Of a stretch of DNA of 64,000 nt, positions 2-59,133 are shown one piece after another. Numbering within the stretch: the first letter of the stretch is position 1; each line of letters opens with the position of its first letter. The stretch is taken from assembly GCA_000004985.1 (NCBI GenBank), contig GG738897.1. The stretch is one strand, 5' to 3'. The notes beneath the pieces were generated by a model that was given only the letters and a program-made list of their open reading frames with translations, had not been told where the DNA came from and searched no databases. This DNA is from Naegleria gruberi (taxonomy: Eukaryota). Both the position numbers and the translations under genes were made by a program.

Positions 2-1309
2 TTGGTTGTTTTGGAGTTTGGAGAAATTTTTCAACAAGTTAACTTGACCTCTCTTTTGGAGAATTACTCTATTCGATTTTATGATAACAAGCAAGGAATG
101 GTATTTTATCAAAGGCTTCTTTCAGAACATAAGAATTATGATCTGAATAACTTGGAAAATGCACAATTTATTTACGAAGCCATTAATATTACAATTATTG
201 ATACAACATGGGAAATGCTATTAATTCCAATTGATTATCACGATTCTAGTGTGTTGACATTGGAAATTTTAATACCAATCATTATTGTTGTATTTGGTCT
301 ATTGGCCATACTCATATCTTCCATATCCTTCTCACGTTATACATTACGAGTTAGGGCAGACAAGGAGACTCTGGAGATATTTGCTTCTACAGACGAAACA
401 CTGAAAAAAGAAATTGTAGAATTTGTGGAAAATACCTTAAAGAAGGTTGAAAATTACGTAAAAGAAGAAAATAATTTGATAGAATGTATCAATTCCTTAG
501 ACCCTCTTGTCACTCTATTTATTGATGAATCTGCTTTAATTAACACTGTTAACAGGCCCTTCTTGACTTTATTTGGGTACAATGATGAAAGTGAATTGGA
601 AAATGTGGACCTACAACAAATCTTGCCACTGTTTGATATCACTGATGTTTACAAAACACATGAGAAAACACCTGCACAAGATAGAGAATACATTCTTCAT
701 TTCCCCTATGTTGAGGGATGTAAAAAATTCGGAGCTCGGATTAAACTATCTCTAAGCCTGACTTTTAGCAATACCTCAATAACAGAGCCAGTTTTCTGCA
801 CAATCCTACTCAAGCCATCTGAATCCTTATTGAACAATATTCCAATTGACGAGGAGATTACTGAGAATACGAGCAAGTTTATGAAGACGATAATTGAAAA
901 TAAGAGCAACATGATGAGTTTTATAGATTTTCTAAAAAAAAAGAGAAGACAAGATGATAGAAATATCATCTTTATTCAAAATGTGAAAGCTTATAAGGTC
1001 ATGAAAAATATACAGGAACGAAATTCGTATATGGAGGAAATAATCACCGATTGTATAATCTGTAAACCAAATGAGAGACTCTATGATGTGAGCCCTGAAG
1101 CATTTGATTCATTCCACAAAAAGGTACGAGAAAGTTCAGAAGATAAATCAGGTGTATTTGATGCTTTGGTAGTCATTGTCATTCAAAATTTCTTCCTTCT
1201 CAATGTGTTTGATAGCTGGCAAAAAGAGAGAACTCGTAAAGAGGCACCTTTGAAGAATTTGTTTGATCCAATTCTCAAATCCAAGACTAAACTTTCAAAC
1301 ATTAACTAA
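2..1309 (+). CDS. 5'-partial membrane protein with PAS-like and C-terminal RGS-like domain
   Basis: Open frame running off the window start, stop at 1307-1309. Hydrophobic TM segment (ILIPIIIVVFGLLAILISSISF). PAS-like stretch (LINTVNRPFLTLFGYNDESELENVDLQQILPLF). C-terminal RGS-like helices (SFIDFLKKK...FIQNVKAYK...FDALVVIVIQNFFLLNVFDSWQK). Domain calls are by eye. Confidence 0.45.
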   Translation: MVVLEFGEIFQQVNLTSLLENYSIRFYDNKQGMVFYQRLLSEHKNYDLNNLENAQFIYEAINITIIDTTWEMLLIPIDYHDSSVLTLEILIPIIIVVFGLLAILISSISFSRYTLRVRADKETLEIFASTDETLKKEIVEFVENTLKKVENYVKEENNLIECINSLDPLVTLFIDESALINTVNRPFLTLFGYNDESELENVDLQQILPLFDITDVYKTHEKTPAQDREYILHFPYVEGCKKFGARIKLSLSLTFSNTSITEPVFCTILLKPSESLLNNIPIDEEITENTSKFMKTIIENKSNMMSFIDFLKKKRRQDDRNIIFIQNVKAYKVMKNIQERNSYMEEIITDCIICKPNERLYDVSPEAFDSFHKKVRESSEDKSGVFDALVVIVIQNFFLLNVFDSWQKERTRKEAPLKNLFDPILKSKTKLSNIN

Positions 1310-1724
1310 ACTACAGTAATTTGTGGATCTCTTTACAACAACTCAACAAGTAGATTGAAAAGTTTGAATATTATCTGGATAAATTGAATTTTCGTCATTT
1401 GGCAATACCTCACCAAAATGGTAAGTTATCCAACTTCCAAATTGAAACGAAGCAGTAAACATCAGATACTTAGTGATATCCACTCGATAGAAAACCTTGC
1501 CACATGCATCACTATCACTATCCATCTTATCTGAGTGACGATGACATTGGATACATGCTTACTTTCTATCATAGATACTTTAATCCAAAATGTAATGTAT
1601 TGTAATCTCATCCATTATTCATTCTAGATAAATAGTGACACAATCAAGCATACTATTCTCTCATCAATAAGAAAAAAAACAATTCAAAGCAATATATTTG
1701 GACTGTCTCTCTTTAAGAATAATA

Positions 1725-2885
1725 ATGGCTCAACAATATAGAACTGTTTCCTCTGTCAATTTTTCACTTGGTGTACTCGTGCTTGCTCTCTGTTTGGGAT
1801 ACTTGCTTTTCACCGCAGCTCATGTTGAAGCTGCCAAGAAGAAACCAGCAAGACCACCTCATCATGGTCAACACAATTCTACTCATCCACCAACTCCAGC
1901 TCCTCGTCCAGTCAATGAAACCTCTGCTAGTACTCCAGTAAATGATAAGGAATTGATTGACAAGATCAATGCCAATGAAACTCTCGGTTGGAAGGCTACT
2001 GAATATCCACGTTTTGCAAACTTGTCCATTTCAGAAGCAAGAGACTCACTCTTTGGTTTGTCCTTGCTCAGTACTGATCCTGACACTCCAAGATTGGACA
2101 TTGAACCACGTGTTGACTTGCCAATGAATTTTGATGCTAGAACTCAATGGAGAGGATGCATTCCAGCTGTTAGAGATCAACAAACATGTGGCGCCTGTTG
2201 GGCTTTCTGTAAGTTTCTAAGTTTTACAATTTGATTTATTAATTTTAACTTTTTTACAATTTTCATTTAATACAAATTTCCTTTTTGGTAATATTGACAA
2301 ATAGCTGCCACCTATGTATTGGCTCATAGATTGTGTATTGCCACCAATGGTAAAACTAATGTTGTCCTATCACCAGAATATCAAGTTCAATGTGATACTA
2401 TGAATAAGGCCTGTCAAGGAGGATATTTGAAATATGCTTGGTCATTTTTGGAAAGGACTGGAACTACTGTTGATTCTTGCATTCCATATGCTAGTGGAAG
2501 AGCAACTTTCTCATCTGGTACTTGTCCAGCTAAATGTAAAGTCTCTACTCAATCCATGACCATGTACAAGGCTAAGAACTCTCGTTACATTTCAGGTGTC
2601 AATAATATTAAGGCAGCCATAATGAGTTATGGATCTGTGCAAAGTGGCTTCACTATTTATCGCGATTTCATGTCATATCGATCTGGAGTTTACAAACATG
2701 TCAGTACCACAACTTTGGGTGGACACGCTGTTGCATTAATTGGTTGGGGAGTTGAAAGTGGAACTAATTATTGGTTAGCTGTCAATTCATGGGGATCCAA
2801 TTGGGGTATGTCTGGTTATTTCAAGATTGCCCAAGGAGAATGTGGAATTGAGAATCAAGTCTATGCAGGAGAACCAGTTTACTAG
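1725..2885 (+). CDS. cathepsin B-like papain-family cysteine protease (2 exons: 1725..2208, 2305..2885)
   Basis: ATG at 1725 with signal peptide (the track's 1698 start is TTG). CGACWAF active-site Cys at the exon 1 end, then GTAAGT donor at 2209 and ...aaatag acceptor ending 2304. Exon 2 restores the frame: CWAF-S-ATYVLAHRLCIATN, CQGGYLKYAW (cathepsin B signature), GHAVALIGWG, NSWGSNWG. Stop TAG at 2883-2885. Confidence 0.85.
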
Positions 2886-7136: not shown

Positions 7137-10100
7137 TTATTTGAAGTAAGGCATTTGGAGAATCTGCCTTGCACTTGGACGAGTTTCCTGATTCCTGTCC
7201 AACATTTTAATCACAATTTCCATTAATTCATTCGAATATTGTTGTTCAGCTTCCATTTGCTTTGTGAGAATTGACACAGCATTTGCTGATTGATTTCCCA
7301 TCAACAAGTTTCCAATAGAAATTGTTTCATCCTTTGTCATGATCTGATAAATTGAAACTCCCAATGAGAAAATATCGGTATTGAAAGAATAACAACTTCC
7401 CAATGCAATTTCAGGACTATTTCAATATCATGGTCAATTAAGTTGTGAAATTTAACATTTGCTTACCTCATAAAAAGTGGAGTTCCAGCATAGGAATGAC
7501 CTTTCATTTCTTGATGCTTTTTAGCTAAGCCAAAATCAGCCAAAACAACTTCAATATCATTTCCAGAAAGATTTCGAATAAAAATATTTGAAGGTTTGAT
7601 GTCTCTGTGAATGATTGATAATTCTGAATGGACATAGTCAAGAGCACTCAGTACTTGTTTCATTATCTTTCGAATAATATCTTCAGAACATGTTTCTTTC
7701 TTTGTAAATCTTGTCAAATCGCCATTTTCAAAATAATCCATATCCATACAAAGTAAATTATCTTTTGTAATGAAATAATCATTGATTATCAAAATATTTG
7801 GATGTCTAATATTACTAAATTGTGATGCCTCTTTCATAATCGTATTCAAATCTGTAAATGATTCAAATTTCACAAACTTGACAGCTTTGATTTTGTTTCC
7901 ACATTTGGTATCTGTCACTTTGAATACACTTCCAAATGCACCTTGTCCAATTCTGACCATATTAATATATCTTGAAAGGACATCTTCATTATCTGACACA
8001 TTGGATCCCATAGACGATGAAATAATTACAGAACTGGATGGGAAGTCTGACATTTCAACAATTGTGGCATTTGCTATTTCATTTCTCTTCACTGCCTTCT
8101 TCTTCTTCATAGATAGTAGAATGATAACCACCACAACAATTATCACTATTATTAAGCCAATTCCAACAATTGGAATCACAATTGCAACCACCAAAACAGT
8201 TGTTGATTGATCGTTGGCTAAATTATCGAGTGAAGATCTTTCACAAAATTGACCATCGAAACCAGTAATACAGTTACAAATATCCAATCCAACACAACTT
8301 CCCTTTCCATTACAACTTTTTGAATCTGAAGAACTAGTTCCATTACAAGTGATTGGTTGACATTTGTCACCATAGAAACCACTCAAGCAATCGCATGTAT
8401 TATTGAAAGAATTGAATTGTGCTCCTCCTTCACAAACAGGATATAGCTTTCTAATTAGTGAAGTTACACCATTGGTTGACACTGTTTCAAGAAAAAGAGT
8501 TTCGTCCGATTTCTCATTTACATCAATAGTATAACCAAAACCAATAAAACTTGTTTCCACTCCCTTCAGGTCTCCATTGAAATAGGTACTCTGCTCTCTT
8601 GGTTTTCCTGCAATGGTCACTAACAATCCAGTTTTTTTCACATACTTTCTAATAATATTATTACCAGAATCCAATATAATTATATCACCATTCTCTTTCA
8701 CATAAAATGACTTAATTTGAGACAATTTAGACGAAACAGCAGGTAGATTATCACCACTATATCCATCAGTCCCAGTTCCAACAATACTCTTCAAATAGAA
8801 CGAACCATTCTGAAGTCGTTCCAAAACTCGAATGGTGTTTGCTGTGCAAAAGTAATGCAGGTCATCACTAATGGAATGAGAGGAACCAATGACACCAATT
8901 CGTTTGTCATTTTCTACAATGATTCCATCTTCAGATTCGAAAGGTGAATTGAGTGGATTCCAAAAGAATACACGAATCATACCTGAACTCTTTTCAATCT
9001 TTCCAAAAAAATCTGGATAACAAATGTAAATATCGCCATTCTTGGGATTTACAGAAAGACCTTTAGTACTTTGCTTTCCCAATGGAGAATTCAAAGCTGG
9101 AATGTCAGGAATCACTGTTCCACATTCCTTTCCTGCCACTTTCTGATATTTCAATGTTTTTGGATCAATTTGAATAATTCTGCAATAATCTGCAACATAA
9201 ATCATATTATCATAGAGAGAGAATACCATTTTAACATCAACTCTTGGAAAAAGTGCAAACATAAAGGAATCTAAAAGTACTAAAGAAAAGGAAAGGAAAG
9301 GTTTGACAGCTGGCAATAGAGAGGTAATTTCACCAGTTTTCTCATCATACTTCTTCAATACATTCTTATCTATTATATAGATTAGATTTTGATTTGGATC
9401 TCTGCAAAAGGAATTCATGTCCATACCAAGTAAGTTTGAGCTAGGATTGCTGCCAACTATAGTTTTGGCAATTCCATCAACTATTGTGTAAATGTAGGAT
9501 GATACTGTCGCAATGTAAATGACTCCATTATGTGCATAAATTGAATTAATCGACCTTTTAAGGTTTCGAATAAAAAATTTTCAAAGAAACTTACATTGCT
9601 GATTGAGTGGCATTAACATTCTCACCACTATATCCATCAAAATCAACATAAGTTCCAGAATATGTACCTCCATCAATTCCACCAACCTTTCTTAAACTAA
9701 GATCATCCAAATTTGCTTCATAAATTCTGTAACCATTCGCAACATAAATCTTTCCATATATGGAATCATAGGCAACACGTGAAATTGAAACTGGAAATTC
9801 AATCCAGTCCGAAGATTGATTTTTCCATTCCACTTTTATAAGTATTCCAGATGAAATATAATATAAAGTATTGTTTAGGATGGAAAACTCATTTACACTG
9901 TACTCAATCTTACTTGAATCTTGTAAAGTTTCGTTTTGATATTTGTAAATGCCATCTGAACTCACAAATCCAATGTACATTGTGCCATTATCAAAGGAAT
10001 TTCCAAAACCAGTAATAGAGCTAATTGGATTACTGTAATTAATTTGGAAATATCTCATCCTTAATGTATCCAAATTAAGAACGTGTAAATCGTGGTATCC

Positions 10101-14299: not shown

Positions 14300-17200
14300 C
14301 TACTTTTTAATGGTCAATGGATCATAATCTGGATTCAATGAGCTTCCACAAGTAGCCACTTTTCCAAAATAGGAAAATTCAGAACTAGCCATTCCAGGAA
14401 TCATCAAATCATCACTTTTTACAACTTGAATCGTATCAACATGGAAAGTTCTCAATATTGTTGATGGTTCTGTCAAACTAAATCTCAACTTTTTGAGTGA
14501 AAATGAACTTGTTGTAAACTCAGAAATTGGAATTCTTACTCGTGCTGTTGTATTGTCAATCTTGTAATTTAAAACGTGCTCCTTCTTTACAATTACTTGT
14601 TTACCGAAAGCAGTTACTGAAATATTGAGTGGTCCATAATTATCTGAAACTCTAACAAAGAATTCGAAATGAGAATAGGCAGCACCGCTCAAACCATTAG
14701 TTCTTTCAAGATAGACATCACCACTTCCCATAATCATCTTGATTGCATTACCACATAATCCTCCTTCTCCATTAACTTCATAGGAAGCATCTCCATTTCC
14801 AGTAACAGTCGAGAATGAATTCAAATTGTCTGTGAAGAAGGCATTTCCAAAAGTTCCGTAATTGACACATGAATCTGTGGCATTGGCTATTGGAGGAGGT
14901 AAGGCACATGTCGAAGTAGTCGAATTACTGCAATATAATTGAGCTCTCAAATGTCCAGTTGGATTTTGAGTGGTTGACAATTTGACAAACATTTGACCTT
15001 TCAATAGAGCTACTTGTTCTTGATAAGATAAATCAAGGAGGAAACGACTGACACCATAAGGGGATATTGGATTATCCAATCCTGGATGGATAATTCTCTC
15101 TTGAGTACCGACAGCTCCAATTCCAACTGAAATTTCAGTGGCGATTAAATTCAAATTGTGGAAAACTGTGAAATCTAAAAGTTTTGCTTTGAAATCCCAA
15201 AATGCAAAGACTTTTCCTGAGCCATTTGAGCCAATGAGGGATGAGTTGACTGCTTTTTGTTGGCAGACTTCTAAATTTCCAACAAATCGATCTTCCTTCA
15301 TTAAGGTATTGTAAACTAATTTGGAAGAAGTTGGATTACCAAATTTAGATGGAGCACAGTTATTGTTTGGACAAGTTGCAACAATTCTAATCAAACCAAC
15401 ACTATGATAATCAGAAAATGGGTAAACATTCTCAAAATCATCTCTTGGCACTCTATTTTGTAACTTGACATATAAATGCTCAGTTGTCTGATTGTAATAT
15501 GCCAATTCATTTGGTGAAACCATGACCTCAGCCAATGAACTTGCCCAAGTCACAGGATACGTATTCGAACTTCCACTTTCTGACCAAGTTATCTTGAAAT
15601 CTGTCTTATTTGGATACTGAATTGCCAACACAATCCAATCATAGTTGACTGCATTTTTCAAGCTGACGGACAAATCTCTCGGAGTTGGATGATCATTTGG
15701 CCATCTCAGTCCATAAAATCCTCTATTAAGCAAGTTATATTGTATTACCCATGTGTTATCATTACCTCCTGGGCTTCCATTGGATGGTCCTTGAATATTT
15801 CTCAATTGGTCAACCACGTACATTCTTGGTGTGATGATATTTGCGTTTTTCAATTCAGGTTGTGCAACTCCTTTGGATGAGGTAGTATTGTATGTTGTAA
15901 ACTCGTTATTTCCGACCCTGAGTTGAACGAACATTTCACCAGTTGCGGGACAACCATAAGCACTCCAATCACTATTCGAAACACAACCAGAAAAGGCGTT
16001 CAATGGATCTTGACCAACAATCCAACCTCCACTTGGAAAACCACTAATACTTCCATCCAAATCTGCCCAAATTCCCATTCTCTGGTTATCATATGGAGTA
16101 TTATTCAAGGCATAGAACTTGTTAGAATTAATAAAGGTCAACCCAAAGAGTTTGTTAACTGCTGATTCCAATTGTTTACGAGAACGATGAGAAACTGCAC
16201 CAGAGGCCTTATATGCATCTGGAATAAAGTTAATAAATGTGCAATTGTAAAGTAATTGAGGACCGTCGTCTTCATAAACTTCGTAACCACGAATGATCAA
16301 CTCATCACTTGCATAGAGTTGAGGACGAGTTCTACCACCAACGTCAACCTTTGATCTGAAACTTGAATCGCCTACATTAGAGGTCTCACCAATCATGATA
16401 GAGTTTCTTGTAATAGTTGGTCCCTTTGGTGCAGTAATTTGTACGTTATTGTCAAATGCCAAAAAGTTTTCCAAATAAAGAACTCCTCCCTTAACCCAAG
16501 CTCCATAATCTCTATTCTTGTAAGCAGTAAAACGGAAGAATGAAGCTGACCCATTCAATGGGTAGTATCCCTCAGTTTCTAATGTACCATCAGAAAGCAA
16601 CATTTCATCAATCCACAATCCAGTAATTGAGCTGTGAGCAACGTTATCTTCGAATGGAGCCATTGCTGTTCTTCTTGGATTGAAATCTTGACCTGCATAG
16701 ATGGTAGCACTCATTCCAACAGGGAAAACTGGGAAAGAGAGCCAGAATCCGAACTTACCACCCACAGCAACGTTTCCAATAAAGGTATTGTTTGGCTTTT
16801 TTATGGTTGACTAAAAAATTGTAAAGAACTTTCAAACTTACATTTGTAATCCAATAGACACTAGCATCACAATCCGATGGAATAATTTGTAATTGATCAG
16901 CATCTCCAACCGGATTCACTTTTACGCCTAAATTATTTCTAAATTCATTTCCAAATTCGGAACCATCTTCCAAATAAAAAGCATGACCTGTAATATTGAA
17001 ACAGATATTGTTTTTCACGAGAATGTTTCTAGAATCATGAATGACGATGCATCTTTGATAACTATTCCAAATGGCATTGTTTGCAATCATGAATTGAGTG
17101 GAAATTTGTTTGCTTGTGTCTTTTAACAAGTGAAGATGTAATCCGTATCTTCCCATTAAACCTAAATATGAATAAACATTTAGATTTAGAGTTGAAATTA

Positions 17201-18172
17201 ACTGGAAATTATTCGAAACTTACCTTTTTGACCAACATTTCTCAACTCAACTCCAACAAACTGAAATTGCTTAACCAATCTAACAATCAAATGAGATCCA
17301 AAACTGGATGCATCACTTGAATCATCTCCCTTAAACACAATTCTTCTGGTCAACAATGCAACTTCTGAAAATGTGTAATCTTTACCAACGTGTGTGAAAT
17401 TTAGCGGACTTTCCAATGTCAATGTCAAACCATCAGCTGAAATTGCCTTAATAGTAGCTTTTTCATTTTGATCTGGAAAAGCAACACCTCTTTGCCAATT
17501 TCTGGAAGTGTCATTCATTATCTTGAAATCAACAACTTCACCATAATCAGTTGAAGTTAGCAAAATGTCATCGCCAACACTCCACATGCCAGTGACAGAT
17601 TCTTTCAATGTGATAGAGCTGGTATTCTTGAGTGCAGTAGCATTAAGACGTGTCCATGCCTTATCATTAATCAATTGTCCAACAACTTGAACAGTGGCAC
17701 CTGTCAAAAATGCAATTCCCTTATTTCCTAAATTAGCATTATCATATGGATCAGTACCAAGTGTATTTTCAGTAGATCTAGGACCATAAAATGTAATGGT
17801 AATCTTCTTATAGATAGGACATGAAGTACTTCCCATAATAAACGAAGCATTTCCTTCAACTCTAATGTGATTGACGTTAATATTCATGAATTTGTTGTCA
17901 AAGATTAAAGATCCACCACTTTGGACTGTGATTGAGCCATACTTGACTGGTGGGGAGGTTTTGATTAATACTTTCTGACCTGAAGTGATTACAATGGCAG
18001 ATTCAGCGACTGTGTAATTAGAAAGTGAACTAAAGTCGACTAAACCTGATTGACCGTAAGGACATGCTTGACCATTGGCAAAACCAAACCAACACGCGCT
18101 AATAACAAGAAGCGATGCTAATAAAGCTAGTAATTTCATTTTTTTTACAATGATAAGCTCTTCAAGTTCCAT
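14300..18172 (-). CDS. secreted G8-domain plus parallel beta-helix (PbH1) repeat protein, CEMIP/TMEM2-like; 3 exons 18172(or 18139)..17224, 17161..16842, 16810(or 16795)..14300
   Basis: Signal peptide MKLLALLASLLVISACWFGFANG. G8-like region (VITSGQKVLIKTSPPVKYGSITVQSGGSLIFDN...NINVNHIRVEGNASF). PbH1-like repeats (NAIWNSYQRCIVIHDSRNILVKNNICFNITGHAFYLEDG). Intron 17223..17162 (GTAAGT...atttag) joins ...NVGQK-G-LMGRYGLHLHL. The second intron has GTAAGT at 16841 with acceptor either tttttag (31 nt) or aaaaag (46 nt). Both choices give an in-frame WITN-(STIKK)PNNTFIGNVAVGGKFGFWLSFPV. Confidence 0.65.
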
Positions 18173-18537
18173 TACTTGCTCTATTTATTTGTTGACTAGT
18201 GACAGATGTTAACTGGATTTTACGTACTGGAAGAGGAACAACTTTTTAGAACTGACCAGTTTGGGGGTTGAACAGAGTTTTTCTTTTGAGTGAACTCCCA
18301 TTGTCAAGCTACCCAACAGTCCAATCAATAATTTTCCATTCCAATAAGACAGTTCTCATTTCGAACTAAATGATTCGAATAAGAGGTTACATGATTTCAC
18401 ACAATTACAATCCTTTTGTAAAGATTTACAGTTTCTAACATTCAACCAATACCCATCTTCGTTTCAATTATCTCTCTAGAGTCCAAACATCCAACCTAAA
18501 CTATTCTAAAACTAATTCCCAAGTTCATTACAAAAAA

Positions 18538-19826
18538 ATGGGACAAACACAACACACTGCCATTCCACCATCCAATTCTTCACCACCACCACCACCAGAA
18601 AATGAACATCACAACATACAACAATTAATTATCAACAACAAGATGAATGGGCCGAAAGAATTTTACTCGTCGGATTGAGAAGAAGTGGAAAGACACTCTT
18701 TCTTCAAACCTTGTGTCCTGATACAGTTTTATATAAAGATTTATTAGAATCTGTGAGTGGGAAAGTATTGCAACATATTCTGAAAGCAATGATGATTCAT
18801 AATGTTGAGGAAAAATTATTAGAATTGATGAAAATTGTGAAAATGTTTGATGAGGATGGAGAGAAAATTTCCAAGAATTTGCAAACTTTTGTTGAATTGT
18901 ACGTGAGAAGTAATTCATTACCTGCTGAGAGACCTATTTCTTTTGTGGAATTATTGTTGGATTTGTGGAAGTTTCGAATATTTGCAGAGTTTTATTATGA
19001 GAATATGGATAGATTTTATTTTAATGAAAATTTGGAATTGTTTGTTGACAAGATGAGAATGCATCGAGAGGATGGAATACTTTTTGATCCACTTCGAATA
19101 ATTTCAAAGGAAACTCTTGGATTTACAGCAGCTGTCAAGAAATTGGATAACAATTCCATTACTATAATTGAAAATAGAGGAACAAGACCTGATACAAATC
19201 TGAATGCCAAAAAGGTATTAGTGTTAACTGTTTCCCTGGTAGATTGCATGATTTCTGTAAAGGATGAAAGCAATTTACTGAACTTGACAACATTCACTTC
19301 ATATCCAAACTCCAAATTCGATTCTGCACTTTCCTTCTTTGAAGATATTGCCAAAAGCAGAGCATTGAAAGATTTCCAACAAAACACTCGTGTCTGTATC
19401 CTCTTTACAAAAGCAGATTTACTAATGAAACGATTGGAAAAATTCGAAACCTTTCCACGACATGAAAAGGAAGAATGTAAAACAATCCAGAGAAATGAAA
19501 TTTCAAATTTGAGAAATTTCTTCATGGAACGAAATGTCATTAATTATGTAGTGAATGAATTTTATGAAATTTTACGGAAATCTGGAATGGAAAGTATTGA
19601 ATTTGATTATCACATTATTAATGCATTGAATGAGGAGGAAGTGAATCGTGCATTTGAACTCATTGTAAAACCACTCAATCAACGAGGAGTTTCGAAACAT
19701 TATCTTTCTCCATGCCTTTACAGACCTTTAGAATACATTCCAATACAATTGTACAATAATCTTAACAATCAATACCTCACTGATGTTGTCATTATTACAA
19801 ATCCATCAAGAAACCAATCATTCTAA
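18538..19826 (+). CDS. divergent heterotrimeric G-protein alpha subunit-like protein (possible pseudo-GTPase); main ORF 18630..19826 with an upstream MG... start ORF out of frame
   Basis: ILLVGLRRSGKTLFLQTL aligns to the Galpha P-loop KLLLLGAGESGKSTIVKQM. IISKETLGFTA aligns to RVKTTGI. VCILFTKADLL aligns to IILFLNKKDLF (NKxD becomes TKAD). The helical-domain insert is present. The DVGGQ switch II position reads IENRG. The MGQTQHT... start at 18538 is in the +1 frame relative to the main ORF, and no GT donor lies in between (see findings). Confidence 0.55.
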
Positions 19827-20314
19827 TTGACAAGCTAATGACAAATACTTCCAAAAAGTTTAGTCTCAACTTTCCAATAATCGACACTAACCAAAACTAA
19901 ACTCAAATCTTCAGAGTCTATTAAAGGAAATTGCAATAAATGAAACTCAACACTTTCCCCAAAAGACATCCAAAGTAAATTACCATCAAATTTAATATGT
20001 GAAATTGTCACAGCAGGAAAGAACCATTGGTGAGTTAATTTGACATTGAGCAGATCAATACTGTTAAATACTCTTCCTTTGTAAAGAGTTGGAGGATGTG
20101 GACAAGTTGCTAGTCGCCATTGAAAAGACACAACCATAAAGTCAACCAACATGCCAAGTGTCAATAATTAAAATAGAAAGGTGCCAGTTACGAAAGCCAT
20201 TTTTACATATTTGAGGTGAAGTGCGAGGTCTGCAAGCCGTTGCGTCATTATCAAACAATTTAACATTCAAAAAAAAAAGATTAATTTCACACGAAACGAA
20301 ACTATTCGAAACCA

Positions 20315-21244
20315 ATGGTCGCTTACTTTGCTTCATTAGCTTCGTTAGATAACAATTTCGAAGATTTACGACCACGTAGACCTACCAAGGTTTCTCCCAG
20401 ATCTTCCACAAGCTCTTCTCCAAGAAATAATGCTGGGGAACATTCGCCAACGAGCCAAGATTCGTCCGACATTCTTCAACTTTCTCCAACAACAAGTATG
20501 ACGAAATTACCAGTAGAAAGGACTCGTTCACATTCGAATAGTGGTAACAGTACCTATTCTTCATCTTCAGTTTCGTCGAGTGGGTCTCAGAGTGTTAGAC
20601 GAAACTCACCATTAGAAAGTCCACAACCTCTGGAAAGGTCGATTCGTGAAATGGCAAGAAATTATGTGATCAATATTGAAAAGTTCCTGTCTACCAATAA
20701 TCATGATGAAAATGAGAGCTTTTCAGAGTTTCTCAAGTCTGAATGTAATTTGGCCCCTTTAGAATTTTATCAGAAAGTAACCGAATTCACGACTAAACCG
20801 GAAAAGAAGGAATTGGCACGTTATTTGATAAAGAATTATATCAAGGAAAGAAGTAATAGTGAAATTAATATTGCAAATAATGTGAGAGAAGTCATTTTGA
20901 AGGAATATAAGGAATGCAAGCACAACAATAGTCAAGTTTCGTCTAATATTTTCGAAAAGGCCTGTAATGAAGTTAAACTGTCGCTCAAGAATGACAGTTT
21001 CACAAGATTTGTTGCCAGTGAACAATTCAGCAAGTTAATTTTGAAGAAATTCAATCAAGCAAACAAATCACTAGATTCGAATAATTCTACAGAAATATTG
21101 GAATCCATTTTCGAATCAATTGGTTCTCTCTCCCCACTTTCCTCTCCTAAATTCTCTGCTCATTCTCATCCTCAAAATATTGTAAACAAATCTTTGGATA
21201 CTATTGCAAACTCTCAAATTATTGTAACTCCTCCAAATGAGTAA
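20315..21244 (+). CDS. RGS (regulator of G-protein signalling) domain protein with S-rich N-terminus
   Basis: ATG at 20315. The C-terminal 130 aa match the RGS fold: SFSEFLKSECNLAPLEFYQKVTEF...ARYLIKNYIKERSNSEINI...FEKACNEVKLSLKNDSFTRFVASEQF. Confidence 0.7.
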   Translation: MVAYFASLASLDNNFEDLRPRRPTKVSPRSSTSSSPRNNAGEHSPTSQDSSDILQLSPTTSMTKLPVERTRSHSNSGNSTYSSSSVSSSGSQSVRRNSPLESPQPLERSIREMARNYVINIEKFLSTNNHDENESFSEFLKSECNLAPLEFYQKVTEFTTKPEKKELARYLIKNYIKERSNSEINIANNVREVILKEYKECKHNNSQVSSNIFEKACNEVKLSLKNDSFTRFVASEQFSKLILKKFNQANKSLDSNNSTEILESIFESIGSLSPLSSPKFSAHSHPQNIVNKSLDTIANSQIIVTPPNE

Positions 21245-21836: not shown

Positions 21837-23015
21837 ATGTCCTCCATCACACAACGGGAAGCACCACCTTACACTAGAATTCAATATGTTTCGCTTTCAA
21901 CTCTTGGGGTCATCACGGAAAAGATGAAGACTAAGATATTAACAGTGGCTACTAAGGAAAATTCCAAGCACAATATTACTGGAGTTTTGATTTGTGTGAG
22001 GGATATGTTCTTTCAGATTATTGAAGGAAAGACTGCTGATATTGAACAATTATTTGCAAATATTGTCAATGATTCGAGACATAATAATGTTGCATGTGTC
22101 GACAAGTCGTATTTTGAAAGTGAGGATGATAGAATGTTTCCTTCGTGGGATATGAAATCAATTGAGGTTGATTGTTTGTTTCCTACCAAGAAGGATGTAT
22201 TGATTTGTGGGGAAAATTGTAATCCACTCGATCCAACTCATAAGAGAGTTATTGAGACTGCATTCTCTGCTTTTACAACAATGATGGGAAGTATGTTCAG
22301 AGCTCAACAAGTGTTCAAGAATTATGCCCAACCAAGTGTAACCAAATTTGTTAGGGATGGATTGAATCCTCTCTGTATTCAATCTGTTGTTACGGAAAAG
22401 ATTGTAGTTTTTATTGACCTTGTAAATTATACCACCTTGACAGAAATCATTTCTCAATCGAGAAGCGTTGCAGAAATTGTAAGAATTCTCAACTTGTTCT
22501 TTGCCTGCGTTATGGAAATTGTCGAAGAGCACGGTGGAGACATTACCAAGTTGATTGGTGACTGTGTAATGTGTCATTTTGATGGGAAAGATTCACAAAA
22601 GGCCATTGATTGTTCGTTGAAAATATTGGAACGATTAGACCATCTCAGATATGAAACAACAGATCCATTCGAAAAGCTCATCTACTGTACAATAGGAATC
22701 TCGAAGGGTGAGGTCATTTTGGGAAATGTTGGCACAGTTGGAAGAAAGCTTGACTATACAGTCATTGGTGATTCAGTAAACACATCAGCAAGATTACAAT
22801 CCTTTGCCTCCACTACTCAATACTATCTCATTTTCGATGAGAATGTAAAGAATGATTTGATTAATGAAGATTATGTAATATCGTGTGGTTCGATTGAATT
22901 GAAAGGAAAGAGAAATACAGTCAATGCCTACACAATAGAGAATGTATATAATAGAAAACCTCAGAAAGAAGATTTGAATGGTCTTTTCAATGTGTGTTCT
23001 TTATCAATATTGTAA
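21837..23015 (+). CDS. BLUF-domain / class III adenylyl-guanylyl cyclase fusion (photoactivated adenylyl cyclase-like)
   Basis: BLUF motifs YTRIQYVS...NITGVL...FFQIIEGKTADIEQLFANIVNDSRH...FPSWDM. Cyclase homology domain FIDLVNYTTL...KLIGDCVMCHF...CTIGISKGEVILGNVG...YTVIGDSVNTSARLQS. Confidence 0.8.
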   Translation: MSSITQREAPPYTRIQYVSLSTLGVITEKMKTKILTVATKENSKHNITGVLICVRDMFFQIIEGKTADIEQLFANIVNDSRHNNVACVDKSYFESEDDRMFPSWDMKSIEVDCLFPTKKDVLICGENCNPLDPTHKRVIETAFSAFTTMMGSMFRAQQVFKNYAQPSVTKFVRDGLNPLCIQSVVTEKIVVFIDLVNYTTLTEIISQSRSVAEIVRILNLFFACVMEIVEEHGGDITKLIGDCVMCHFDGKDSQKAIDCSLKILERLDHLRYETTDPFEKLIYCTIGISKGEVILGNVGTVGRKLDYTVIGDSVNTSARLQSFASTTQYYLIFDENVKNDLINEDYVISCGSIELKGKRNTVNAYTIENVYNRKPQKEDLNGLFNVCSLSIL

Positions 23016-24754: not shown

Positions 24755-25480
24755 ATGAGTACAAAGAGAAGTACAGTATTACCAGATAATTTCCTTAAAT
24801 TTTGTAGGGAACAAGTAGCATCAGCAGATAGAAAGGATTCCTCAGTTTGGACTTTGGAAGCAGAGAAGGATGGAGTCTCTGTCTATTCGAGACCAGTGGA
24901 TAATCAAGAAGGAGGTTTGGAATTGGCTTTTCGTATTAGTGGTTTGCTGAAGGCTTCTGTTGAGGAGGCTTTTGAGGCTACACGAAATGTACATTATAAA
25001 GTTGTTCAGAAGAATGCCATTGAGGAAGGAAGAGTAGTGGAGGATCATTATTCAACACCTGACGAGGATGGAGAATTGTATGATATTGTCTATCAGAGAA
25101 CTCCTTCTCCGAATACATATATTATTGCCAAGAGAGAGTTTTTCTCTGCTCGTTACTTTACTGAGATTGAGGGCAAAAAGTTGATTTTTGAACGATCGAT
25201 TAATATTAATGATTTGGCTCCACAGACTTTAAAGTCTATGAAGAAGATTCCTGGATTTAATGAACCAGGTGCTATTGAAGGAACTATCAAATTTAGTATT
25301 GTTGAATTTGAGGCAATTAGTGAGACTAGCTCAAAATTTGAGGTTATTAGCAAGATGAATTTGAATGGTTGGATTCCAATGAAACTTATTAATAATTTAA
25401 TGAAGATTGCTCCTCAAAAGGCAAGAGATGACATTGAATCGTGTATTGACACTTACAGAAAGTCCAAGCAACAAAAATAA
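24755..25480 (+). CDS. START (StAR-related lipid transfer) domain protein
   Basis: 241-aa ORF. Pattern W..E..KDGVSVYSR...EFFSARYF...GWIPMKLINNLM is typical of the PCTP/START fold. Confidence 0.55.
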   Translation: MSTKRSTVLPDNFLKFCREQVASADRKDSSVWTLEAEKDGVSVYSRPVDNQEGGLELAFRISGLLKASVEEAFEATRNVHYKVVQKNAIEEGRVVEDHYSTPDEDGELYDIVYQRTPSPNTYIIAKREFFSARYFTEIEGKKLIFERSININDLAPQTLKSMKKIPGFNEPGAIEGTIKFSIVEFEAISETSSKFEVISKMNLNGWIPMKLINNLMKIAPQKARDDIESCIDTYRKSKQQK

Positions 25481-36893: not shown

Positions 36894-38645
36894 TTAATTC
36901 AAAGTAAATCCATATAAATTTCCAATGTTTTTCCGATAATCAATAATGGTATTAATTGTTTGGGAGTCGATTGAATCGGTGCTTTGTTCTCTACGTTCCC
37001 TAACGAGTTCATTAAAGTTGGAAATCAAATCAGATTTTGAATTCTTATTGGATTTCCACATGGTGAGTGGAAGAAAGCTGTTCATATCAAAATAAATCAT
37101 CATGGAGTATCTGCACTCGGTATTTGAAATCCTCTCAATGTAAGACCCTCCAAATAGAGACCCCTTGGTGTGTCCTTTTGGTGGTTGAAATTTGGAGTTG
37201 TGAATTGGAAGTCTGGCTATCCAATAACTTGATTGTTTCGAATTGCAAATAGAACTAAAGGTTTCTTGATTCTTATTTTCCTTTCCAATGTGCCATTCGT
37301 GAAGAGTTTCATCTCTTGCTGAGAGACCAACATGGAAATATCTGGAAGTGAGTGGGAAATTCTTCTTTACACACAATTGACTAATAATACAGGAATAGAT
37401 ATCTCCCTGAACATAATCAATGTGCGAAGTTTCCTCAACTGCTTCTTTTGAAAAGTAGGAATCAAACATGATTCGGATAACTTCATCTGTGGATGCTTTC
37501 ACAATACCAGTTTCTTTGAAAATCTTGAATTTTTCCTTTTTTAACTTTCGTTTCGAATCTGAATTGTAATGTTTCAAATTAAGTTCGGTATAGTACGAAG
37601 TGGTTTCTCCATTCACTCCAGATTGATGCCAAATACCTTCATCTTGGTGAAGCATTTTAAAAAGTGTATAGTGCTTATCTTGGACTATTCCACTTCCGTC
37701 TAACATTACACTTTCTAATACCTCAAACACTTTGGATGAAGAAGGCATTACATGAAGTGAAGATTTAAAATCTGAGTCTCCATCATATGGGTAAGATTCT
37801 GTATCTTCTGAATTTGGTGAAAAAGCTCTGCTCGATTTTGGTGATGAACAAACTTTAGCTCCCTCAATTTCGAAACTTTCATTCGAAACCTGATTCGATT
37901 CTCGATCTTGAATAGCTTGCACCAACTTGTCTGACAATGATAAATTATCAGACATCTTTCTACAGCCCATCTGAATATAAAATCGTTCTAAAAAGTCACA
38001 AACTTGATTGATTGAAATTTTCGAAACCTTTCTAAATTCCATTGCCGATTGATCTAACACAAATTTTGCATACAGATCACTTCCAACAAATCTCATATAA
38101 TTATCAGTTCCCAAACTATAGTGAATATGTGAAAAAATCGGATCAAATATCGTAACTGGTGTTTCCTTAATCGAACACTTGGCAAATTCTTTCATAAAAT
38201 TTTCCTTCACATGATTCGGCAAGTTTAGTTGATTTGCAGAACAATCCTTTACATAAATATCAACCAATTCGTGTCCTAATTTAAATCTATTCTTTGCAGA
38301 TTTCAGCAATTTGAATTCATCCAATTTAAAGATAAACTTCAAAGTCATAACATTTTGCTCAAGTTCGAGAAATTCATGAAAAAGTTGGACGAACGAATCT
38401 TGAAAACCTCGATCGAGAAAATCATCAAATGGAAGGGTGAATGAGTGGGAAACATCCTTTAGAAAGTTTGATAGAATGATGGTTTGTAGTTCTCCTAGCG
38501 GGAGTTGAAATTTGTATTCGTTTAGAATATTGTTGGGTTTCGAAAAGTTTCGGGTATCAAAGGATCGTTGTTTTGTAGGTGATGATGGTTTGGTGATGAA
38601 TAGCAGAGAAGGTGAAGAAGCACCTTTGGGCGAGGTTTGTGTCAT
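36894..38645 (-). CDS. RGS-domain protein with C-terminal START-like domain
   Basis: N-terminal RGS fold (FLKDVSHSFTLPFDDFLDRGFQDSFVQLF...DNYMRFVGSDLYAKF). The C-terminal roughly 200 aa resemble a START lipid-binding fold by pattern only. Confidence 0.5.
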   Translation of the reverse strand: MTQTSPKGASSPSLLFITKPSSPTKQRSFDTRNFSKPNNILNEYKFQLPLGELQTIILSNFLKDVSHSFTLPFDDFLDRGFQDSFVQLFHEFLELEQNVMTLKFIFKLDEFKLLKSAKNRFKLGHELVDIYVKDCSANQLNLPNHVKENFMKEFAKCSIKETPVTIFDPIFSHIHYSLGTDNYMRFVGSDLYAKFVLDQSAMEFRKVSKISINQVCDFLERFYIQMGCRKMSDNLSLSDKLVQAIQDRESNQVSNESFEIEGAKVCSSPKSSRAFSPNSEDTESYPYDGDSDFKSSLHVMPSSSKVFEVLESVMLDGSGIVQDKHYTLFKMLHQDEGIWHQSGVNGETTSYYTELNLKHYNSDSKRKLKKEKFKIFKETGIVKASTDEVIRIMFDSYFSKEAVEETSHIDYVQGDIYSCIISQLCVKKNFPLTSRYFHVGLSARDETLHEWHIGKENKNQETFSSICNSKQSSYWIARLPIHNSKFQPPKGHTKGSLFGGSYIERISNTECRYSMMIYFDMNSFLPLTMWKSNKNSKSDLISNFNELVRERREQSTDSIDSQTINTIIDYRKNIGNLYGFTLN

Positions 38646-56964: not shown

Positions 56965-59133
56965 ATGTCAAAAGTTGAATCTGTTGTTTGTATTACACTC
57001 ACAGATTTCCTAGAGAATGAATTGTATCATCAATTAAAAAACAAATTCTCATCACAAACGAAAGGTTTCGTATTGTGGGAATTAAACAAGGAAATTAGTT
57101 TGAAAGAAAAACAATTTCTTCCGATAGAATATTCTAAAGACAAGGAATACATTCAGAAATGTGCAAAAATTTGTGCTTCTCTCGATTATAGAAACAATCA
57201 ATTTTATAGCACATATCTTGTTAGCTCAATTTATCCGAAATTATTATTGGAAAGTTCAGACGAATTACAGAAATACAAATTGAGTGGTATTAAAAAATAT
57301 GCTGATCACCATTCGAATATTAAAAAAACAATGATTTACAATACGAATCCAGAAACTAGAGAGCTAGTTTTGCAAGCTGTCAAGAAAAATGGAAATGATT
57401 TGATGAAATATCAAAAATTTAATTCGGATAGAGAAATTGTTATTGCAGCAATTAGACAGAATGGAAATGGATTATTCTATGCTGGAGTGGAATTGAGAAA
57501 TGACAGAGAGGTAGTGAGAGAATCAATGAAGGTCAACCAGCATACTTTCTATTACATGTCTGATGAGTTGAAGAAGGATAGATCACTAGCTCTGGAAGCT
57601 GTCAAGGAAATTCCAGGATCTATCAGATATGCTCCTGGTGAAATCAAGAATGATAGATCGTTTATAGTGGAAGCTGCTTTATTGAATGGAAAAGTGTTGC
57701 AATTTCTAGATGGAGAATTTTTGAAGGACAGAGAAATTGTGGAGAATGCTGTATCTCAATACGGGTATGCTATTAAATATGCGCCAGAGGAATTTCAAAG
57801 AGATGAATCATTAATGCTAGGTGTTATTAGAAAGGCACTCAGTTTGGATTCAACAGTAGAAGTTTCTGACGATTTGATTTTGAAATATGTTAAAGAGCAT
57901 AATGGTGGATATTTGGCAATTAAATTGGAAAGATGTTGTAATGTAAAAGAAGTTATATTGGGAGCATTGGAGAATAATGGATCTAGATTGAATGAAAATA
58001 ACAAGAGAGAAAGAGAATTCATCTTGGACATGTTGAAAGAAAATTGGGAAATATTCGAAAAGGCAGACGAAAATATCAAGAATGAAAAGCAAGTCTATAC
58101 AAAAGCATTTGGTTTAAATTGTACATTTCTTGAAGATTCCTATAATTCCGAGCTATTCAATGAAATTTTAAATTACAGAAAGAAGATTCTTGACAGCTCT
58201 CCAGTTGGTAAGATCGACAAGGAAATTGCAAGCAAAATTGTGCACCAGAATTTTAATATTTTGAAAGAATGGAATATCACCAGATTAGATGATCAAATTC
58301 ATGAATACTTACACCATTTCAGCAGTGACAGAGATTTCGTGCTACAAGCAGTTTATCTAGATGAGAAATATCTTTCATTTGCTAGTGATTCATTGAAAGA
58401 TGATTTTGATTTCATGGTGACAATTGCACAACATACCCGTAACATGAGAGATGCATCTCCTCGTTTGAAATCAGATCCTCAATTTATCTTACGAGCATTG
58501 GATTATCTTTATGAATTGAAAGCTCCAAAGGAATTGAGAGCTGATAGAGATTTCATGATGAAAGCAGTTCAGAAAGGAACACATCTCTATCACGCCTCTG
58601 ATGATTTAAAGAACGATAAGGAGTTAGTACTCACAGCCATTAAAGGCAGCTACTCGAACATTTCACATGCTAGTAAGGGTCTTCAAAAGGACAGAGAATT
58701 TATTATTGAAGTTTTGAAAATTGATGGAAATTGTTTGAAATATTTGTCAAAGTCTTTCAAAAATGATAGAGAGCTAATTTTGACAGCTGCTCAATCTATC
58801 AATCCTTACATTGATTATGAGTTGTGTTATGAGCTATTTCCAACGGACAGAGAAGTAATGATGGAGTGTACCAAACAATATGGATACGAAATGATTCCTT
58901 ACAATAGCTATCTTAGTGATGAGTTTCGTTTTGATAAGGAATTCATGTTTCAAATTGCTGCTTCAAATAATTCAGCAACTTTGGATGTGTTTGATATATT
59001 TGGAAATGATAAGGATTTAATAATGAGATTGGCACTTGTTTATGGGCTTGTTCAAAAGTTTGATGAAGATATTTATCGAAAGAGAATAGAATTGGTCTTC
59101 AATGGAGTCAAATTACCAACAGATAAATACTAA
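56965..59133 (+). CDS. DUF4116-type repeat protein
   Basis: 722-aa ORF with about 12 tandem repeats of roughly 36 aa built on [KN]DRE[FILV]V..AV..NG..L.YA (NDREVVRESMKVN, KDRSLALEAVKEIPGSIRYAP, NDRSFIVEAALLNGKVLQFLD, KDREIVENAVSQYGYAIKYAP...). Confidence 0.6.
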   Translation: MSKVESVVCITLTDFLENELYHQLKNKFSSQTKGFVLWELNKEISLKEKQFLPIEYSKDKEYIQKCAKICASLDYRNNQFYSTYLVSSIYPKLLLESSDELQKYKLSGIKKYADHHSNIKKTMIYNTNPETRELVLQAVKKNGNDLMKYQKFNSDREIVIAAIRQNGNGLFYAGVELRNDREVVRESMKVNQHTFYYMSDELKKDRSLALEAVKEIPGSIRYAPGEIKNDRSFIVEAALLNGKVLQFLDGEFLKDREIVENAVSQYGYAIKYAPEEFQRDESLMLGVIRKALSLDSTVEVSDDLILKYVKEHNGGYLAIKLERCCNVKEVILGALENNGSRLNENNKREREFILDMLKENWEIFEKADENIKNEKQVYTKAFGLNCTFLEDSYNSELFNEILNYRKKILDSSPVGKIDKEIASKIVHQNFNILKEWNITRLDDQIHEYLHHFSSDRDFVLQAVYLDEKYLSFASDSLKDDFDFMVTIAQHTRNMRDASPRLKSDPQFILRALDYLYELKAPKELRADRDFMMKAVQKGTHLYHASDDLKNDKELVLTAIKGSYSNISHASKGLQKDREFIIEVLKIDGNCLKYLSKSFKNDRELILTAAQSINPYIDYELCYELFPTDREVMMECTKQYGYEMIPYNSYLSDEFRFDKEFMFQIAASNNSATLDVFDIFGNDKDLIMRLALVYGLVQKFDEDIYRKRIELVFNGVKLPTDKY

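Follow-up and report, generated by a model that had tools for sequence, protein, structure and literature searches.

The plant proteins XLG1-3 carry a Gα fold with degenerate G motifs, undergo little or no nucleotide cycling, and are functional, binding Gβγ and AtRGS1 in a nucleotide-independent fashion. Gα proteins can also be impaired at the P-loop; the Gαi1 variant G42R is unable to reach the active state (also the title of PDB entry 3qe0), and fungal Gα P-loop mutants harbor an arginine at the same second glycine. In Naegleria gruberi, PMC8584482 reports 44 Gα genes and cites Anantharaman et al. 2011 for deviant catalytic motifs in some Naegleria Gαs. On this source, the loss of catalytic motifs is already known, in general terms, for some Naegleria Gαs. 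The same organism encodes 229 RGS genes among its 15,727 genes (~1.5% of all genes).

The locus described here lies in the window, a 64,000-nucleotide stretch of N. gruberi contig GG738897.1 (assembly GCA_000004985.1), in which a Gα-like open reading frame (ORF) is followed by an RGS ORF. The initial annotation had described the two as a tandem pair. Both are indeed on the + strand, with a gap of 488 bp, not 490 bp, from the end of the Gα stop codon (19826) to the RGS ATG (20315). A Gα/RGS fusion gene is ruled out, as the Gα ORF ends with TAA and the RGS ORF, read in another frame, starts at an ATG of its own that agrees with public model P0012.

The Gα-like open frame (18606..19826, 406 codons plus stop) specifies a Ras-like domain into which a helical domain is inserted. 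This protein is too divergent for single-sequence searches, and phmmer against PDB sequences finds no Gα; its assignment was therefore based on Pfam, on alignment within its clade, and on fold searches. The Pfam G-alpha family PF00503 matches residues 16-353 and covers profile positions 21-329 of 333, and its score of 54 bits (E 1.9e-14) exceeds the cut-off of 48.8. The AF2 model, built from a 10-sequence alignment (pLDDT 73, pTM 0.75), places helices H43-165 between β1/α1 and β2, such that the Ras-like GTPase domain carries an all-helical insert between α1 and β2. The top 50 Foldseek matches are all Gα chains with a probability of 1.0, and their TM scores range from 0.53 to 0.72 except for one of ~0.45. 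Pfam and Foldseek thus agree with the earlier placement of the gene in the Gα family. Judged by sequence profile and modeled fold, 18606..19826 is a real, very divergent Gα gene; its product is the most divergent member of its clade and scores 18 bits against Gαi1.

The nucleotide-cycle motifs were mapped by three alignments that agree with one another (MAFFT with Gαi1, BLASTP against P0002, and BLASTP against P0004), using a Gαi1 reference confirmed to be identical to the PDB chains. The P-loop GLRRSGKT (18672..18695) aligns with G40-S47 of Gαi1 (GAGESGKS). It retains the generic Walker A pattern GxxxxGK[ST], including the lysine and the Ser/Thr, and has lost the second glycine of GxGxxGKS(T), G42 being replaced by arginine (R25 of the window protein) and E43 by another arginine. 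The switch I remnant SKETLG (19104..19121, from the alignment) reads S-K-E-T-L-G-F and does not conform to RxxTxGI with its Arg finger and Mg-binding Thr; S167 occupies the position of the Arg finger R178, T170 that of the Mg-binding T181, L171 that of T182, and G172 that of G183. In switch II, D200, V201, G202, G203, and Q204 are aligned with E, N, R, G, and T, and the remnant consists of ENRGT and a short loop (19170..19214, from the alignments and the AF2 model). A 6-residue deletion after ENRGT, relative to the relatives, takes out the conserved switch II Trp. DxxGQ followed by the α2 helix RSERKKW is not found, and AF2 predicts a loop without an α2 helix. The G4 motif TKAD (19407..19418) replaces NKxD, keeping Lys and Asp and exchanging Asn for Thr, whereas G5 is changed from TCAT to INAL with only the Ala retained. 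Additionally, the window protein has an 11-residue insertion after β4 and a shortened α5 helix, and a clade-specific C-terminal extension (19668..19823, ...HYLSPCLY...YLTDVVIIT...) takes the place of the canonical receptor-coupling tail.

The initial annotation had listed the P-loop, the helical insert, and TKAD as present, which the alignments and the AF2 model corroborate, and had correctly regarded switch I as altered, with Ser at the Arg finger position and Leu for T182. It was also right in that DVGGQ and its catalytic Gln are lost, since none of the three alignments recovers an intact DxxGQ; the replacement is, however, ENRGT followed by the deletion and not IENRG. The notion of a GTPase-dead or otherwise unusual Gα is likewise upheld, because the Arg finger, the catalytic Gln, and the switch II helix have all been lost and the second P-loop Gly has become Arg. 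Read from these motifs, GTP hydrolysis and the GTP-dependent switch II transition would be impossible, and the protein would at most bind a nucleotide. It would then be a GTPase-dead, possibly recently disabled, Gα paralog. The arginine at the second P-loop glycine is reminiscent of Gαi1 G42R and of the fungal P-loop mutants. Unlike these single-site and otherwise canonical mutants, the window protein has also lost Arg178, Gln204, and switch II.

The 5′ end of the gene is interrupted by a frame break, a feature absent from the initial annotation. The ATG at 18538 opens a short ORF (18538..18678, + strand, 46 codons, beginning MGQTQHTAIPPSNSSPPPPPENEHH...) that hits a stop at 18676-78 and is out of frame with the Gα body. 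The Gα frame is open from 18606 onward with its first ATG at 18789, and both frames are open between 18606 and 18656. Hence, 18538..19826, previously taken as one gene, is not a single continuous CDS. No MG start for N-terminal lipidation leads in frame into the GTPase domain; the MGQ at 18538, the sole plausible start codon, sits in another frame, and the P-loop cannot be reached from it in the reference assembly. The same MGQ start is found in N. lovaniensis P0004 (MGQRKTK...) and in an ORF 5′ of P0008 (MGQRKSKAPPP...), and the short ORF probably represents what was once the N-terminus of the Gα gene.

No GT dinucleotide is present in 18538-18668, so that a canonical GT-AG intron cannot join the two frames, and the two GC dinucleotides of this segment are unlike splice donors. 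A programmed −1 frameshift was also rejected, as inspection of the frame overlap by eye reveals no X XXY YYZ slippery heptamer, as was an in-frame start further 5′, given that the frame 0 stops, located at 18507, 18513, and 18603, have no ATG between them. Joining the MGQ start to the P-loop requires a 1-nt deletion, a 2-nt insertion, or a −1 shift within 18606..18656. Because the MGQ ATG is out of frame and no intron is available, the public N. gruberi model P0001 (a ‘predicted protein’ of 345 aa, 18789..19826, + strand) begins at the internal Met and lacks strand β1, the P-loop, and helix α1. The break may be an assembly error.

The closest relatives of the window protein are ‘predicted proteins’ from N. 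gruberi and Naegleria lovaniensis. An exhaustive phmmer search over 1.8e9 representatives yields only 10 matches (P0002-P0011), of which all named ones are from Naegleria, the rest being ENA or Logan contigs of environmental or read-assembly origin; a profile search of a word-indexed database of 5.8e9 entries returns only 2 proteins. The clade is defined by a TKxD-type G4, a YHI-N G5 region, and a C-terminal extension of the pattern (Y/F)ISPCL ... LTD(I/V)xI that is present in all members. The window protein harbors all of these in the form of TKAD, YHIIN, HYLSPCLY, and YLTDVVIIT. The TKxD-type G4 is clade-wide, with Asn replaced by Thr, Ser, or Val throughout. The switch II Gln is kept in only one of the ten representatives and replaced in nine, and none of the ten has Arg at position 178.

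P0004 of N. lovaniensis, an intact gene with a single exon and a product of 384 aa, likewise lacks both the Gln and the Arg. The motif losses, being clade-wide and including this intact copy, are therefore older than any recent disabling. P0004 lies near a homolog of the G8/CEMIP neighbour of the window, but in the vicinity of the CEMIP gene the two genomes do not share the same gene order. No reciprocal best hit was found for P0004, and the only support for its putative orthology is the partial microsynteny through the G8/CEMIP gene. In another N. lovaniensis member, P0008 (L002), the reading frame is interrupted by a stop 3′ of the P-loop.

Several features set the window copy apart. It keeps 35 of the 56 clade-conserved columns; switch II accounts for seven of the 21 lost, and three more, at the N-terminus, are encoded in the other frame. 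Loss of the switch II helix together with its Trp is unique to this copy when set against the ten clade representatives; the Trp is a residue found in all 13 Gαs of Naegleria fowleri, and it is the only clade copy here with a frame break ahead of the P-loop. It shares the organism and the Pfam family with the described expansion of Naegleria Gαs and lies at its extreme end.

The neighbouring gene (20315..21244, + strand) encodes a 309-aa protein that is 100% identical to P0012. Its recognition as an RGS-domain gene is borne out by Pfam RGS (PF00615), which gives 60.5 bits (cut-off 23.9). The RGS box spans residues 129-241 (20699-21037) and follows a long, Ser-rich N-terminal region; neither a TM segment nor an amphipathic helix was found in the protein. 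The best phmmer matches are the structures of RGS5, RGS7, RGS2, and RGS16. N185, within EINIAN, aligns with EVNID of RGS5 and EINID of RGS2 and corresponds to RGS4 N128, the Asn that contacts the Gα switch regions; the equivalents of D163, S164, and R167 (RGS4 numbering) are kept as well. From these residues, the box looks like a working Gα binder. The single RGS box and the N128-equivalent Asn resemble the small R4-type RGS proteins (RGS2, RGS4, RGS5, and RGS16). In contrast to these, S85, E87, and N88 of the α3-α4 loop are replaced by Asn, Ala, and Pro, L159 is replaced by Ser, and the N-terminus is Ser-rich. A word-indexed search with the RGS protein returns no homolog besides the protein itself.

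The RGS protein had been presumed to be the GAP of the adjacent Gα, a proposal that finds no support here. From the literature counts, chance alone would place an RGS gene beside 44 × 2 × 229/15,727, or ~1.3, of the Gα genes in N. gruberi, and no RGS gene is next to the clade relatives in the four readable neighbourhoods (L001-L004); the adjacency is neither conserved nor above chance. The RGS-contact positions T182, G183, Q204, S206, and K210 of Gαi1 correspond to L, G, T, P, and a deletion, so that only G183 is kept, and with no catalytic residues, a GAP has nothing to accelerate. The RGS gene is most likely an independent gene that is adjacent by coincidence.

Other RGS ORFs had been annotated in the window. 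The ORF at 36894..38645, described as RGS fused to a START-like domain, does have an RGS domain (50 bits) but no Pfam START domain. The only support for a START-like half is a pairwise comparison (E 0.005) with the START protein of 24755..25480; phmmer of this half against the PDB gives no matches, and its single-sequence AF2 model (pLDDT 34) is unusable. The proposed PAS-like and RGS fusion at 2..1309, a protein with one TM segment, is not substantiated, as its RGS match of 20 bits is below the Pfam cut-off and PAS_8 has an E of 0.043. Altogether, 2-3 RGS genes are found in 64 kb versus 0.36 expected, with P(≥2) ~0.05 and P(≥3) ~0.006 by our own calculation, indicating some local clustering of signalling genes and weighing against pure coincidence.

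The window gene is thus probably a fast-evolving Gα of a small Naegleria-type subfamily with decayed GTPase machinery and a coincidental RGS neighbour. The subfamily, seen so far in Naegleria and in environmental contigs only, would have lost its GTPase machinery. The window protein retains the Gα fold, a P-loop of the Walker type (GxxxxGKT), the Thr for Mg binding, the Asp that confers guanine specificity, and most clade motifs. Lacking GTP hydrolysis and the switch II transition, it would not be a substrate for an RGS GAP, and any function would be independent of the nucleotide cycle, for example, that of a scaffold or decoy. The gene would have been protein-coding until recently, because the 406-codon frame is open and its coding potential is ordinary, and this copy may have been disabled recently or may carry a 1-nt assembly or allelic error.

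The strongest competitor, still improbable, is a plain pseudogene, in which a dead duplicate drifts neutrally and the motif losses are mere decay. The frame break between the start codon and the P-loop, the extreme divergence within the clade (the 18 bits against Gαi1), the switch II indel together with the insertion after β4, and the in-frame stop of a second clade member, P0008, are consistent with this scenario. However, a stop-free frame of 406 codons under free drift at 33% GC has a chance of ~1e-14 by our own calculation, and the coding score of 18606..19826 (0.244 bits per codon) falls among those of 23 other ORFs in the window, as is typical of real genes. Additionally, the 35 of 56 clade-conserved positions that are kept include the C-terminal motifs, AF2 is confident of the fold from the 10-sequence alignment, and the motif losses are shared by the clade, the intact P0004 included. 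These points exclude a long pseudogene period and allow only a very recent inactivation, which is already part of the favored reading of a fast-evolving, decayed Gα.

About as improbable is a functional pseudo-Gα paired with the neighbouring RGS, for which the frame break would be an assembly or allelic error. A full-length, myristoylated protein would then work without a nucleotide cycle in an XLG-like manner, with the RGS as a binding partner rather than a GAP and the two genes co-regulated. The intact 406-codon ORF with normal coding potential, the preserved fold and clade motifs, and the intact ‘dead’ relative in N. lovaniensis are in line with such a protein, as are, on the RGS side, the retained equivalents of N128, D163, S164, and R167. 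A precedent is XLG2, which binds AtRGS1 and Gβγ nucleotide-independently; by analogy with AtRGS1 and this dead plant protein, the RGS could in principle bind the window protein non-canonically. Against the pairing, the main contact surface for RGS and Gβγ, switch II, is deleted and T182 is Leu. No RGS gene neighbours any of the four relatives, the adjacency is at chance level, and the word-indexed search with the RGS reveals no further homolog and hence no sign of a conserved pair. Moreover, the break is located in non-homopolymer sequence, in which Sanger assemblies seldom err.

A broader version, which appears equally unlikely, holds that Naegleria has its own pseudo-Gα clade, independent of the XLGs, whose members would act as cycle-free membrane scaffolds or as decoys titrating RGS proteins (~229) or Gβγ. 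The window gene, devoid of switch II, would be its extreme member and the RGS next door a real partner. Such a clade is marked by the loss of Gln and Arg, a TKxD G4, and an α5/C-terminus remodelled with ISPCL...LTDIxI. A constitutively GTP-locked Gα, permanently ‘on’ through the loss of the Gln and the Arg finger in the manner of the oncogenic mutants Q204L or R178C, is very improbable; the retained P-loop Lys/Thr, Mg-binding Thr, and TKAD Asp make nucleotide binding conceivable, but the ‘on’ state needs an ordered switch II helix, which is deleted here and predicted as a loop, and in Gαi1 an Arg in place of G42 keeps the protein out of its active conformation.

In practical terms, the public N. 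gruberi model of this Gα is cut back to an internal Met owing to the frame break, and a similar fault occurs in at least one relative from N. lovaniensis, P0008. In a genome with an RGS domain in 1.5% of its genes, adjacency is weak evidence for partnership. If the window gene is active, XLG1-3 would be its best functional analogy, although it has no XLG extension, has lost switch II, carries a Naegleria-specific C-terminal extension, and is of independent origin. It would then be, after the plant XLGs, another independent Gα working without a nucleotide cycle, bearing on the change from GTPase to pseudo-enzyme in the organism with the largest known Gα and RGS repertoires.

The window DNA is nuclear, belongs to N. 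gruberi, and has a GC content of ~33%. It harbors a G-alpha-like open frame of 406 codons on the + strand, extending from 18606 to a TAA at 19824–19826. Both this gene and its RGS neighbor are 100% identical to public N. gruberi “predicted proteins” (P0001 and P0012, respectively). The assignment of the encoded protein to the G-alpha family is secure and far above chance on the basis of its Pfam score, predicted fold, and structural matches. PF00503 is matched at 54 bits (cut-off 48.8; E 1.9e-14; profile positions 21–329), in agreement with the placement proposed in the initial annotation. The AlphaFold2 model, obtained with a 10-sequence clade alignment as input (pLDDT 73, pTM 0.75), shows a helical domain inserted in a Ras-like core. 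Its top 50 Foldseek matches in the PDB are G-alpha chains only, with a probability of 1.0 throughout, and include Gs, Gi, Gq, G13, transducin, and the N. fowleri Ga7 (6ne6).

The catalytic motifs deviate strongly from those of human Gai1, the sequence of which was confirmed to be identical to the PDB chains. Three independent alignments (MAFFT of the clade with Gai1, and BLASTP against the clade relatives P0002 and P0004) yield the same motif register. The P-loop, GLRRSGKT instead of GAGESGKS, retains the Lys and the Ser/Thr and harbors arginines in place of G42 and E43; in Gai1, G42R prevents the activated conformation (PDB 3qe0). Switch I reads S-K-E-T-L-G for R178-V-K-T181-T-G, such that the Mg-binding Thr is retained and the Arg finger is gone. 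Switch II is E-N-R-G-T in place of D-V-G-G-Q204, followed by a 6-residue deletion that takes out the ERKKW segment, and the site of the alpha2 helix is a 13-residue loop in the model. The switch II Trp, present in 13/13 N. fowleri G-alphas, is missing. The previously noted replacement of switch II and loss of its Gln hold in substance, but the register is ENRGT rather than IENRG. G4 (TKAD for NKKD) retains the Lys and Asp, and G5 (INAL for TCAT) the Ala.

When 1.8 billion representatives are searched exhaustively with phmmer, only ten proteins reach E ≤ 1e-3 (P0002–P0011), all from N. gruberi, N. lovaniensis, or ENA/Logan contigs, and all recognized as G-alpha by Pfam. Common features of this clade are a TKPD-type G4 and a conserved YHI-N G5 region. 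The switch II Gln is substituted in 9 of the 10 representatives (R, D, K, K, S, D, S, K, T), and no clade member has an Arg at the canonical finger position. After a short alpha5, the window protein (19668..19823) and P0002–P0011 carry a C-terminal extension, (Y/F)ISPCL...LTD(I/V)xI(I/V)T, that supplants the usual receptor-coupling tail. The window protein retains 35 of the 56 clade-conserved columns, with 7 of the 21 losses in the switch II block. Being approximately equidistant from all members (54–80 bits), with only 18 bits to Gai1, it is, by sequence, a long-branch member of the clade. A double-Arg P-loop (G-x-R-R-x-G-K-S/T or GRRGIGKS) occurs in the window gene (18672..18695) and in the N. 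lovaniensis members P0004 and P0008 (contig L002, ~7851–7877), which hints at a subgroup.

The 5′ end of the gene is broken. The ATG at 18538, initially annotated as its start, lies in a different frame from the G-alpha body and opens MGQTQHTAIPPSNSSPPPPPENEHHNIQQLIINNKMNGPKEFYSSD, a 46-codon ORF (+) that stops at 18676–18678. In the G-alpha frame, stops occur at 18507, 18513, and 18603, and there is no ATG before 18789 (MMIHN...), 3′ of the P-loop (18672–18695). P0001 begins at this Met and is missing the P-loop together with strand beta1 and helix alpha1. The ancestral start was very probably MGQ, since P0004 (MGQRKTK...NKILLIGRRGIGKST) and the ORF upstream of P0008 (MGQRKSKAPPPAEDE...RKIVLLGSRRDGKST) start likewise; in the window, MGQTQHTAIPPSNSSPPPPPENEHH and ...DEWAERILLVGLRRSGKT are read in different frames. 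A canonical intron joining the two frames is ruled out because 18538–18668 is devoid of GT dinucleotides, and no slippery heptamer is seen by eye at the break. The offset corresponds to a single 1-nt deletion, a 2-nt insertion, or a −1 shift within ~18606–18656; it may be a genuine mutation, may be confined to one allele, or may stem from faulty assembly.

Several features point to a lineage that has long evolved as a coding yet non-catalytic G-alpha. The chance of 406 stop-free codons at 33% GC is ~1e-14 by our own calculation. The codon score of the frame is 0.244 bits per codon, within the range of 23 other window ORFs (0.156–0.419), with clearly negative off-frames. Non-catalytic clade-specific motifs and a foldable core are preserved, and P0004 is an intact single-exon gene with the same catalytic losses. 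The 5′ break itself is an error or arose recently. A homolog (38–58% identity) of the G8/CEMIP gene abutting the window gene is located 3.5 kb from P0004. The multi-exon window copy (14303..18184, −) is head-to-head with the G-alpha-like gene, while the N. lovaniensis homolog (L001 12672..17008) is tail-to-tail with P0004, with two B-box or unknown genes intervening; the arrangement is partial microsynteny with rearrangement. At the P0008 locus (L002 7779..8906), an ATG at 7779 (MGQRKSKAPPPAEDEIEEPFRKIVLLGSRRDGKSTLVK...) shares its frame with the annotated start at 8001. The two are separated by a TGA in that frame (7959–7961), 3′ of the P-loop, and therefore the public model lacks the P-loop, like that of the window gene. 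P0008 may be a second decaying member or contain an unrecognized intron; its stop and equally truncated model suggest turnover within the clade.

The RGS gene (ATG 20315 to 21244, +; 309 codons; PF00615 at 60.5 bits versus 23.9) encodes a small, soluble protein with a Ser-rich N-terminus. In comparison with RGS5/RGS2, its RGS box retains N185, D227, S228, and R231, which we take to be RGS4 N128, D163, S164, and R167. At the positions of RGS4 S85, E87, and N88 it has N, A, and P, respectively, and L159 is replaced by Ser. The protein looks like a competent G-alpha binder. Gene adjacency in eukaryotes is by itself no proof of co-function. With 229 RGS proteins and 44 G-alphas in 15,727 N. gruberi genes, an RGS neighbor is expected for ~2.9% of genes, or ~1.3 G-alphas. 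An adjacent RGS gene is found for none of the 4 clade relatives with readable neighborhoods (L001 and L002 from N. lovaniensis, L003 from Logan, L004 from ENA), and the RGS-recognized surface of the window G-alpha is mostly lost. The RGS gene, presumed to encode the GAP of the adjoining G-alpha, is thus without any tie to it in particular, and the adjacency is at chance level. The strongest argument to the contrary, a plant precedent in which the dead XLG2 retains nucleotide-independent binding to AtRGS1, keeps a binding-partner reading as a rival, which the chance expectation, the relatives, and the lost surface make improbable.

Two further RGS fusions had been proposed. The ORF at 2..1309 (+) is a C-terminal fragment of a larger protein extending beyond the window. 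A single TM segment (aa 79–114) is present, PAS_8 is matched weakly (E 0.043), and RGS, at 20 bits, falls short of the Pfam threshold; the protein may be a membrane-anchored PAS-RGS sensor. For 36894..38645, the RGS domain stands (50 bits; 32% identity to the 20315 RGS box), but Pfam finds no START domain. The C-terminal half (36894..37700, −) is colinear with a stand-alone START protein (24755..25480, +; Pfam E 1.3e-5) at a weak pairwise E of 0.005, making an RGS-START fusion a plausible candidate.

Directly downstream of the RGS gene, one ORF (21837..23015, +) combines BLUF (79.9 bits) and a class III nucleotidyl cyclase (Guanylate_cyc, 58.5 bits); the gene is of the photoactivated adenylyl cyclase type, which is known in N. 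gruberi. Large DUF4116-repeat proteins, probably just another expanded family, occur at 56965..59133 (+; 348 bits) and at L003 4793..6796 (703 bits), the latter directly upstream of the clade member P0009. A papain-family cysteine protease (Peptidase_C1, 1698..2885, +) is split in two ORFs (1698–2234 and 2319–2885), presumably by a short intron.

That some G-alphas of Naegleria, Dictyostelium, and plants deviate in their catalytic motifs has already been published (Anantharaman et al. 2011, as cited in PMC8584482). New here are the definition of the clade, the deletion in switch II, the explanation of the truncated public model by a frame break, and the chance level of the RGS adjacency. The window gene is an uncharacterized, extreme case of the known motif-deviant G-alphas.
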